Assembly (NCBI RefSeq): GCF_057098645.1
Contig: NZ_CM169472.1
Strand: one strand, 5' to 3'
DNA length: 64,000 bases
Part shown: one piece after another, positions 6,001 through 9,000 of the stretch
Position numbering within the stretch: position 1 is the stretch's first letter
How the letters are laid out: every line of letters begins with the position of its first letter
Program-made: the position numbers

Positions 6001-9000
6001 CGGAAACCATTACAGACTATGTCACACTGCAACGAGGCTCGGCTTATGGCGGCGTGTTATCTAATTTTTCCGGGACCGTAAAATATAGTGGCAGTAGCTA
6101 TCCATTTCCGACTACCAGCGAAACGCCGCGGGTTGTTTATAATTCGAGAACGGATAAGCCGTGGCCGGTGGCGCTTTATTTGACGCCTGTGAGCAGTGCG
6201 GGTGGGGTGGCGATTAAAGCTGGCTCATTAATTGCCGTGCTTATTTTGCGACAGACCAACAACTATAACAGCGATGATTTCCAGTTTGTGTGGAATATTT
6301 ACGCCAATAATGATGTGGTGGTGCCTACTGGCGGCTGCGATGTTTCTGCTCGTGATGTCACCGTTACTCTGCCGGACTACCCTGGTTCAGTGCCAATTCC
6401 TCTTACCGTTTATTGTGCGAAAAGCCAAAACCTGGGGTATTACCTCTCCGGCACAACCGCAGATGCGGGCAACTCGATTTTCACCAATACCGCGTCGTTT
6501 TCACCAGCGCAGGGCGTCGGCGTACAGTTGACGCGCAACGGTACGATTATTCCAGCGAATAACACGGTATCGTTAGGAGCAGTAGGGACTTCGGCGGTAA
6601 GTCTGGGATTAACGGCAAATTACGCACGTACCGGCGGGCAGGTGACTGCAGGGAATGTGCAATCGATTATTGGCGTGACTTTTGTTTATCAATAAAGAAA
6701 TCACAGGGCATTGCTAATGCAGGTACGCAAATATTACCTGAAGCTAAAAACCTGCACGTTAGCCCTTTGTAGGCCAGATAAGACGCGTCAGCGTCGCATC
6801 TGGCATAAACAAAGCGCACTTTGCCGACAATCCGAACAGAGCCTGCCATTGGCAGGCTCTGGTGTTCTTTTACGCTACCATGCTAATAATCAGCACAATA
6901 ATTAGCCCAACCACGGAGTTGACCAGCTCCAGCAGACCCCAGGTTTTCAACGTGTCTTTTACTGACAGGTCAAAGTAACCTTTGAACAACCAGAAAGATG
7001 CATCGTTAATGTGGGTGAGGGTGTTGGAACCCGCAGCCGTCGCCAGCACCAGCAGCGCCGGATTCACGCCAACCAGCTGACCGGTTGCTGGATCAAGGAT
7101 TGCAGCACTGATAATCCCGGCGGCGGTCATCGCCGAAACGACACCCTGACCCGTCGCCAGACGAATTAGCACAGTGATCAGCCATGCCATAATGTAGGGC
7201 GAGATATTGCCGTGGGACATCAACATGCCGATGGTGTCGCCAATGCCGGTGTCGATGATAGTTTGCTTCAGCACGCCACCCGCACCGATGATCAGAATCA
7301 CCATTGCAATGCTTTTCACCGCACTTTCAAAAGCGTTCATCACCCACTGCATGTCATGACCACGTGCGGTGCCAAAGAGTACGAATGCAACCACCATCGC
7401 AATAAACATTGCAATCGGCGAGGAACCGATAAAGTTAACCACTTCCCAGGCAGGGGTATCTTTTACCAGCCAGATATTGGCGATGGTGGTAGAGATCATA
7501 ATGATCGCCGGGATCAGCGGCACCAGAATCGAAACGCCGAAAGAGGGCAGATTGTTCATATCTACCGGTTGATCTGCTTTCAGGAATGATGGCGTTGGGC
7601 GCTCAAGATTGCCGAGGAACTTCGGCAGGATCAGACCTGCGCAGATTACACTTGGGATCGTCACCAGTACGCCATAGATATAAACCATCCCCATATCTGC
7701 GCCATAAGCATTCACCAGCGCCACAGGACCCGGCTGCGGTGGGAACAGTGAATGTGCGGTAGTGGCAGCTGCTACTGCCGGGATCGCCAGTTTCAGGAAC
7801 GGAATTTTAGCTTCGGCGGCAATGACAATAACCAGCGGCGCTAACATGATAAAGGCCACTTCATAGAACATCGCCAGACCAAAAATCAGGCCGATGATAA
7901 TCACCGACAGCTGTACATAGCGCAGACCGAGACGCGCCAGCAGCGTATGCGCTATCTGGTGAGCCGCGCCGGAGTCGACCATCAATTTACCGATGACCGC
8001 ACCGAACACCACGATGATAGCCAGTTCCCCCAGCGTGTTGCCGAAGCCCGCTTTCATGGTGTGCAGCAGCGACATCAAATCCATGCCCGCCAGCATCCCG
8101 ACGGACAGCGCCGCCACCAACAAAGCCACCATTGAATTGATTTTGAACTTCAAATTCAGTACCAGCATCAGACCAATGCCGAATACCACCCAGAGAATGT
8201 TAAGCACATGCATAACGTTTTACCTTACCTGGTTGAACCGTTGTTATTTTGGGCGACATGTTATGTAAATTGGTCAACCATTGTTGCGATGAATGTCACA
8301 TCCTCTGATCAATAACCATCGATTACCCTTTGCTGCAATTTGCAGCAACAACCAGGAGAGTGAAATTCTTGTGATGTGGTTAACCAATTTCAGAATTCGG
8401 GTTGACATGTCTTACCAAAAGGTAGAACTTATACGCCATCTCATCCGATGCAACGCCACGGCTGCGGTCTGGTTGTTCATCCGGATACCTAAACAACTCC
8501 AGGGTTCCGCGTCTCTTTGCTGTGGAACCCACTATGTGAAAGAGGAAAAATCATGGAACAGACCTGGCGCTGGTACGGCCCAAACGATCCGGTTTCTTTA
8601 GCTGATGTCCGTCAGGCGGGCGCAACTGGCGTGGTTACCGCGCTGCACCATATCCCGAACGGCGAAGTATGGTCCGTAGAAGAGATCCTCAAACGCAAGG
8701 CGATTGTTGAAGACGCAGGCCTGGTGTGGTCTGTCGTAGAAAGCGTACCAATTCACGAAGATATCAAAACCCACACTGGCAACTATGAGCAGTGGATCGC
8801 TAACTATCAGCAGACTCTGCGCAACCTGGCGCAGTGCGGCATTCGCACCGTGTGCTACAACTTCATGCCGGTGCTCGACTGGACTCGTACTGACCTCGAA
8901 TACGTGCTGCCAGACGGCTCCAAAGCTCTGCGCTTCGACCAGATCGAATTCGCAGCATTCGAAATGCATATCCTGAAACGTCCAGGCGCGGAAGCGGATT

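Follow-up and report, generated by a model that had tools for sequence, protein, structure and literature searches.

The closest described relatives of the control region treated here are sugar-catabolic regions in which a repressor acts from a pair of operators. At nagE-nagBACD, NagC binds two operators with a CRP site between them and a DNA loop is formed; GalR forms a loop at gal between OE and OI, and the lac operators O1 and O3 provide a further pair. Nearer still are the UxuR/ExuR operators of the E. coli hexuronate regulon, which were reportedly described by Rodionov (2000), Bates Utz (2004) and Suvorova (2011).

Binding of UxuR to the common spacer of the divergent gntP and uxuAB units, and derepression of both units when UxuR is removed, have been demonstrated by others. 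In genomic SELEX with purified UxuR, the gntP/uxuA spacer was the single genomic target, and glucuronate lowered the binding (PMC5934670). RNA-seq showed derepression of both gntP and uxuAB when uxuR was deleted, and also on glucuronate (PMC10016265), and the response of a uxuAB-lacZ fusion to UxuR is direct (PMC9369180). The protein has been described as forming homodimers, or heterodimers with ExuR (PMC12842492, PMC8092373). The two proteins recognize a common DNA motif and each binds the other's sites (PMC11806353); they cross-regulate, probably as heterodimers (PMC9369180, PMC12842492). Occupancy of the spacer by CRP has been reported as well, and multiple CRP sites are stated for it (PMC3105977). 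Our search of the full-text literature for the operator site sequences returned only a synthetic consensus operator.

The window, by which we mean the whole stretch of 64,000 nucleotides that was analysed (contig NZ_CM169472.1 of RefSeq assembly GCF_057098645.1), is E. coli DNA. A 601-bp query around the gntP/uxuA spacer found a match in 5404 of 5426 complete E. coli genomes; it is 100% identical to strain PapRG-04-4, and the annotation reads gntP / uxuA. The divergent spacer extends over positions 8214–8552 (339 bp), and in the gntP–uxuA region window coordinates are converted to K-12 coordinates by adding 4,543,083. The genes concerned are the following.

6870..8213, minus strand: gntP, fructuronate/gluconate permease gene (ORF and RefSeq annotation; 447 of 447 amino acids identical to K-12 GntP)
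8553..9737, plus strand: uxuA, mannonate dehydratase gene (ORF and annotation; 392 of 394 amino acids identical to K-12)
9818..11278, plus strand: uxuB, fructuronate reductase gene (ORF and annotation; 483 of 486 amino acids identical to K-12)
11493..12266, plus strand: uxuR, gene of the cognate GntR/FadR-family repressor (254 of 257 amino acids identical to K-12 UxuR)

The uxuR gene lies about 3 kb downstream of the gntP/uxuA spacer, and its product carries the Pfam domains GntR (5e-23) and FCD (2e-22), which place it in the FadR subfamily. The spacer of the window strain differs from that of K-12 at two bases only (8257 and 8355), both outside the operators.

The initial annotation of this DNA proposed that two UxuR/ExuR-type palindromes bracket the gntP/uxuAB control region. 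Both can be read in the sequence, at 8267–8284 and 8373–8390; the interval 8266–8432 originally assigned to them begins one base before the first palindrome and runs past the second to the putative uxuA −10. A third site of the same type precedes uxuR.

8267-8284, unstranded: operator 1 (site 1), UxuR/ExuR type, AAATTGGTCAACCATTGT; centre 8275.5, 62 bp before the gntP ATG
8373-8390, unstranded: operator 2 (site 2), UxuR/ExuR type, GATGTGGTTAACCAATTT; centre 8381.5, 171 bp before the uxuA ATG
11320-11337, unstranded: further operator of this type, TATTTGGTTGACCAGTTT, in front of uxuR, scoring 16.1 bits (second in the matrix scan) and carrying the exact core TGGTNNACCA

Operators 1 and 2 are imperfect 18-bp palindromes, each with 6 of 9 symmetric pairs, and their cores are TGGTCAACCA in operator 1 and a perfect TGGTTAACCA in operator 2. 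A repeat search recovered them as inverted copies of one another (a 14-nt pair, 93% complementary) with centres 106 bp apart. The exact core occurs three times in the 64 kb compared with 0.82 expected, and all three occurrences are upstream of uxu genes: one in each of the two spacer operators and one at 11324–11333 upstream of uxuR, where the site 11320–11337 probably serves as the uxuR autoregulatory operator.

The motif was derived independently of the window locus. We fetched 80 uxuA loci, one genome per species, and built a matrix by palindromic expectation-maximisation on 64 non-redundant loci of other genera, using the 300 bp that precede uxuA; the gntP-type loci of Escherichia and Citrobacter were kept out of the training set. 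This set replaced a motif search on seven E. coli regulon upstream regions, which was noisy and gave AT-rich optima tied with the true motif. The best de novo motif was AAATTGGTATACCAATTT, letter for letter the same as the UxuR operator in a published biosensor (PMC8092373). Both spacer sites are 18-bp inverted repeats with the GGT-NN-ACC spacing that fit this motif, and their assignment to the UxuR/ExuR type agrees with the literature form and the de novo matrix alike. A position-weight-matrix scan, which the initial annotation had named as a check, placed operator 2 first (16.2 bits) and operator 1 fourth (12.2 bits) in the 64 kb. The match of rank 3, at 60303 (12.95 bits, above operator 1), falls inside the hpaE coding sequence and a match at 45496 falls inside the hsdR coding sequence; both were discarded as chance matches. 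By Markov simulations the per-position chance of such a score is 2.3e-6 for operator 2 and 2.1e-5 for operator 1, so that 0.0008 and 0.007 sites, respectively, are expected by chance in the 339-bp spacer, with a joint expectation of approximately 6e-6. When up to one mismatch is allowed, TTGGTNNACCAA has a density across the 80 loci of 1.78 per kb in the 400 bp preceding uxuA and of 0.12 per kb elsewhere, an enrichment of about 15-fold.

Related genomes have kept the operators in their orthologous regulatory regions. The gntP<>uxuA-uxuB-uxuR layout is common to E. albertii and four Citrobacter genomes, and in a six-genome alignment of the spacer (Escherichia, Citrobacter) both operators, the ATGTTA to the left of operator 1 and GGTTGACATGT are invariant, together with TGCGAT..TCACA beside operator 1 and TGTGAT before operator 2. 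The middle of the inter-operator segment, about 60 nt, is only 52–58% identical and differs even among Citrobacter species. Homologous promoter-proximal operators are present in 8 genera, and the counterparts of operator 2 in Citrobacter, Erwinia and Cedecea are near-perfect (19–21 bits) and stand at the same 11-nt distance from the −35. Within E. coli, the 30-mer around operator 1 is exact in 5192 of the 5426 complete genomes and that around operator 2 in only 3756, a shortfall that is probably due to the replacement of C by T at 8391, immediately beyond the 18-mer, as judged from one aligned genome. One E. coli strain is without fim and gntP, with nanM and nanS now upstream, and has kept both operators and the CRP box.

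On the gntP side, two further elements adjoin or flank operator 1.

8285-8300, unstranded: CRP site TGCGATGAATGTCACA; centre 8292.5, directly adjoining operator 1
8258-8263, minus strand: predicted gntP −10 hexamer TAACAT (ATGTTA on the plus strand), the ATGTTA being invariant in the six-genome alignment

The CRP box has one mismatch to TGTGA-N6-TCACA, and its 16-mer is the reported CRP ChIP-seq motif for the gntP/uxuA peak in ETEC H10407 (PMC4287617). Taking the conserved TAACAT as the −10, we infer a gntP start near 8251. The CRP centre would then lie at −41.5, in class II geometry, and operator 1 would cover about −16 to −33 of the predicted promoter, the classical position for occlusion. 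With the −10-like hexamer and the CRP site both conserved, the earlier placement of one palindrome near the gntP promoter appears justified.

On the uxuA side the elements are as follows.

8402-8407, plus strand: uxuA −35 hexamer TTGACA, read directly; unchanged throughout Escherichia and Citrobacter and present in other genera too
8425-8430, plus strand: predicted uxuA −10 hexamer GAACTT, 17-bp spacer from the −35
8370-8385, unstranded: weak CRP-like box TGTGATGTGGTTAACC (TGTGA-N6-TAACC); centre 8377.5, overlapping operator 2

Operator 2 ends 11 nt before TTGACA and so stands just upstream of the uxuA −35, as had been stated. Of 13 loci from 8 genera, 12 show this 11-nt gap, and such rigidity speaks for an action of the operator by way of a fixed contact geometry. 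With the same 17-bp spacer, the pattern GAnnTT recurs in Citrobacter, Cedecea, Shimwellia, Enterobacter sp. R1 and Erwinia; a scan of 8150–8620 for strict consensus sigma-70 promoters and terminators gave no match. From these hexamers the uxuA start is predicted near 8438, which would put the centre of operator 2 at about −56 and that of the CRP-like box near −60.5. The box has two mismatches and occurs at chance level (26 matches with ≤2 mismatches in the window vs 26.3 expected), and TGTGAT is found directly 5′ of the promoter-proximal operator in most genera. Repression of uxuA is not accounted for by simple steric hindrance, as operator 2 is placed upstream of the −35. The most plausible route is that the repressor displaces CRP or alpha-CTD, possibly helped by the other operator.

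These results make it very probable that the two palindromes are operators through which UxuR, together with its paralogue ExuR acting on the same motif, shuts off both divergent units. They lie in the control region of hexuronate transport and catabolism, in a genome that carries the regulator gene uxuR. Membership of gntP in the UxuR regulon, to which the initial annotation appealed, is borne out by the derepression of gntP along with uxuAB in the uxuR deletion (PMC10016265) and by the recovery of this spacer as the SELEX target of UxuR (PMC5934670). The proposed course of events is that, without D-fructuronate or glucuronate, one repressor dimer would occupy each operator. The dimer on operator 1, which spans about −16 to −33 of the predicted gntP promoter (CRP-dependent, class II), would block RNA polymerase and crowd CRP, while the dimer on operator 2, near −56, would prevent the CRP- and alpha-CTD-assisted recruitment of polymerase to a uxuA promoter that appears to have a poor −10. 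Binding of the inducer to the FCD domain would release the repressor, and the transporter and the catabolic enzymes would be switched on together, only with cAMP-CRP present.

The indirect mechanism that operator 2 needs, being upstream of the −35, leads us to speculate about cooperation between the two sites. Dimers on operators 1 and 2 might touch and loop out the approximately 106 bp between them (about 10 helical turns), which would repress both promoters more strongly and trap the CRP site inside the loop. We regard such looping as possible but on balance doubtful. The distance between operators is 106 bp in both E. coli and E. albertii and 104, 104, 105 and 104 bp in the four Citrobacter genomes despite the diverged middle, and in two Cedecea species (102 bp) and Erwinia psidii (103 bp) the promoter-proximal operator again has a strong partner, although it is located downstream, in the uxuA leader. 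Against this, spacings of 32, 125, 142 and 186 bp are found in other genera, and other members of the E. coli regulon have operators at 20, 141 and 180 bp; moreover, the range of 102–106 bp was chosen after seeing the data, from lineages that are few and not fully independent. The descriptions of UxuR as a homo- or heterodimer do not mention a tetramer (PMC12842492, PMC8092373), and a literature search for UxuR looping or tetramers found nothing relevant. The recurring 102–106 bp spacing may be taken as a hint of cooperative looping. That the two operators form one cooperative unit, combining DNA looping with displacement of CRP (anti-activation), as this spacing and the exact 11-nt distance of the promoter-proximal operator from the −35 would together suggest, is in our opinion a tentative proposal, with the odds somewhat against it; if true, it would represent a nag/gal-like mechanism not described for the dimeric FadR-family repressor UxuR.

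A second question concerns which repressor occupies the two operators, as UxuR and ExuR occupancy are inseparable by sequence alone. The common motif and mutual site binding of the paralogues (PMC11806353) and their cross-regulation, probably as heterodimers (PMC9369180, PMC12842492), would be consistent with in vivo occupancy mainly by ExuR or by UxuR-ExuR heterodimers instead of UxuR homodimers, in which case the output of the region would reflect galacturonate no less than glucuronate or fructuronate. We consider this rather unlikely. UxuR alone selects the spacer as its single genomic SELEX target (PMC5934670), and deletion of uxuR alone derepresses gntP and uxuAB (PMC10016265, PMC9369180). 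In addition, both sites have the symmetric GGTnnACC core that is seen beside uxuR genes in other genera, whereas the asymmetric form GGTATAAC, typical of places that have no neighbouring uxuR, is missing at both.

It is also conceivable that only operator 1 is real and that site 2 serves chiefly for activation by CRP, its right half resembling the UxuR motif by chance. The overlapping TGTGA-N6-TAACC, centred near −60.5, would be at a class I position, and several CRP sites are mentioned for the spacer (PMC3105977). Site 2 is nevertheless the best match to the UxuR matrix in the window, at 16.2 bits; its counterparts of 19–21 bits in Citrobacter, Erwinia and Cedecea keep the same 11-nt distance, the CRP-like box itself is at chance level, and the ChIP-seq motif for the peak is the other box, at 8285–8300 (PMC4287617). 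We therefore judge this reading to be very improbable. The weakest proposal, that the palindromes are functionless chance matches in AT-rich intergenic DNA, can point to a comparable matrix score (12.95 bits) inside a coding region, but it is effectively refuted and has a negligible probability in view of the joint expectation of ~6e-6 in the matrix scan, the position of all three exact cores of the window upstream of uxu genes, the invariance of the sites across genera while their flanks diverge, and the experimental binding of UxuR to the spacer (PMC5934670).

Other candidate elements of the spacer were examined and set aside. TGGTTgAACC at 8230–8239 was not accepted as a third spacer operator: it contains an additional base at its centre, and its matrix score in E. 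coli is under 3 bits. The element is nonetheless conserved. A central perfect palindrome at 8330–8348 was considered as a third operator or as a site for another regulator and was rejected as part of this system, since its conservation ends with Escherichia and one E. coli lineage has a degraded copy. Neither the spacer nor the uxuA leader gave an Rfam match when searched for structured RNA, and the fold z-score was only −1.85.

The operators and the regulation of gntP and uxuAB are textbook knowledge, already catalogued, and only two features of our results are mildly new, namely the rigid 11-nt gap between operator and −35 in 8 genera and the recurring operator pairs at 102–106 bp. The analysis confirms the accepted wiring of the hexuronate regulon at the sequence level by an independent comparative test and leaves the current understanding unchanged: one repressor motif at each end of a CRP-dependent region couples fructuronate uptake (gntP) to catabolism (uxuAB). 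The 11-nt geometry, the composite CRP/UxuR element and the 102–106 bp pairs are offered as hypotheses that could serve work on UxuR biosensors or on repression by GntR/FadR proteins.

When the locus is compared with the known systems, the operators of the E. coli hexuronate regulon are the nearest, with the same 18-bp motif AAnTTGGTnnACCAAnTT, the same locus, the same regulators and the same target genes, and no difference of substance. The positions of the two operator centres relative to the start codons (−62 for gntP, −171 for uxuA) are presumably those listed in the RegulonDB / RegPrecise catalogue. Within the window, the uxuR autoregulatory operator at 11320–11337 has the same core, TGGTTGACCA, and nearly the same score as operator 2 (16.1 vs 16.2 bits); it differs in that only one site is strong, accompanied by a weaker one at a distance of 20 bp, and in serving one promoter instead of a divergent pair. 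Among GntR/FadR-subfamily repressors more generally (FadR, DgoR, LldR), the operators are likewise short inverted repeats with a GT-N(x)-AC core to which a winged-helix dimer binds, and UxuR here carries the corresponding GntR and FCD domains, while the half-site AAATTGGT is particular to the UxuR/ExuR branch and unlike GntR/FadR operators in general. The likeness to nag, gal and lac lies in the architecture: this too is a divergent, CRP-dependent sugar-catabolic region with an operator for each promoter, about 10 helical turns apart, and a CRP site between them. It differs from those systems in that looping is only hypothesised for UxuR, which is reported as a dimer, and in that the second operator is placed upstream of the −35 and not over the promoter.

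Besides the two UxuR/ExuR-type operators in the 339-bp spacer between the divergent gntP and uxuA genes (site 1, 8267–8284, on the gntP side; site 2, 8373–8390, on the uxuA side), the following elements are found in this spacer and upstream of uxuR.

8230–8240: operator-like core TGGTTgAACC(g), with one extra central base
8330–8348: perfect 9-1-9 palindrome TTGCTGCAAtTTGCAGCAA, halfway between site 1 and site 2
8404–8421: operator half-site TACCAAAAGG, within the uxuA -35/-10 spacer
around 11303–11314: weaker site CTGGTCAATCAA, about 20 bp further upstream than the operator at 11320–11337
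11320–11337: strong operator upstream of uxuR
~11408–11455: REP-type element GTAGGCCGGATAAGGCGTTCACGCCGCATCCGGCA, between the operator sites at 11300–11337 and the uxuR start codon

Measured to the centre of site 2, the half-site in the uxuA promoter is 31 bp away, a distance of three helical turns. It scores 5.6 bits with the UxuR/ExuR matrix, which was learned de novo from 64 uxuA upstream regions of other genera. Promoter spacers usually drift, and against this normal drift the invariance of the half-site across Escherichia and Citrobacter is of note. Further downstream, the uxuA 5' leader of E. coli and E. albertii contains a stretch of about 79 bp (~8452–8530) that is missing from Citrobacter. 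This segment folds into two hairpins, one of them GGUUCCGCG...GUGGAACC, with a fold z-score of only -1.85, and it has no match in Rfam.

The core near gntP lies 40.5 bp from site 1, inside the predicted gntP 5' UTR, where the ribosome-binding site follows closely. E. albertii and Citrobacter keep the core (TTGGTTGAACCATT), and its matrix score is below 3 bits in E. coli compared with 9.3 bits in C. youngae. It may serve as an auxiliary operator of low strength, or another protein may bind there. The palindrome halfway between the operators is specific to Escherichia, being absent from Citrobacter and present with one mismatch in E. albertii, and a 30-mer spanning it has an exact match in 4193 E. 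coli genomes. Its half-sites, TGCAA/TTGCA, have no conserved partner.

Both the core and the palindrome are degraded in E. coli SCPM-O-B-8794, the species representative in GTDB (locus L006 in our set of 80 uxuA loci), in which gntP is missing, as the fim operon apparently is too. The uxuA control region is retained in this strain, adjoined by nanM- and nanS-like genes, and an additional operator-like site of 10.2 bits occurs 122 bp past site 1.

The exact 30-mer around site 2 is present in 3756 complete E. coli genomes (missing from about 30%), compared with 5192 for site 1. Strain SK1144 carries a C-to-T change at 8391, the first base past site 2, where both K-12 and the window have C, and this substitution probably accounts for the shortfall.

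Relative to K-12, the window carries an hpa cluster (for 4-hydroxyphenylacetate) that lies between btsT and tsr (50000–62700). At other places it has iatD and espX6, a type I hsdRMS system in which mrr is frameshifted, and an Rpn-family gene that is also frameshifted. A further reported UxuR/ExuR target, lgoRTD, is located past the end of the window.

The operator layout varies among uxuA loci. Among L025–L062 (Enterobacter, Kluyvera, Kosakonia, a further Citrobacter copy, and others), loci in which uxuA and uxuB diverge and uxuR is not adjacent have one asymmetric site, TTGGTATAACAA, whose distance to the uxuA ATG is about 23 bp on the upstream side. It probably represents an ExuR-type variant of the motif; the GGTA-AAC form is shared by the sites of exuR and uxaB in E. 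coli. At L014, L016 (Cedecea), L047 (Erwinia psidii), and L013 (Enterobacter sp. R1), a second operator occurs 102–105 bp downstream of the promoter-proximal one, in the leader directly before the start codon, whereas the E. coli partner is upstream. The promoter-proximal and leader operators of these four loci form a pair resembling gal OE/OI.
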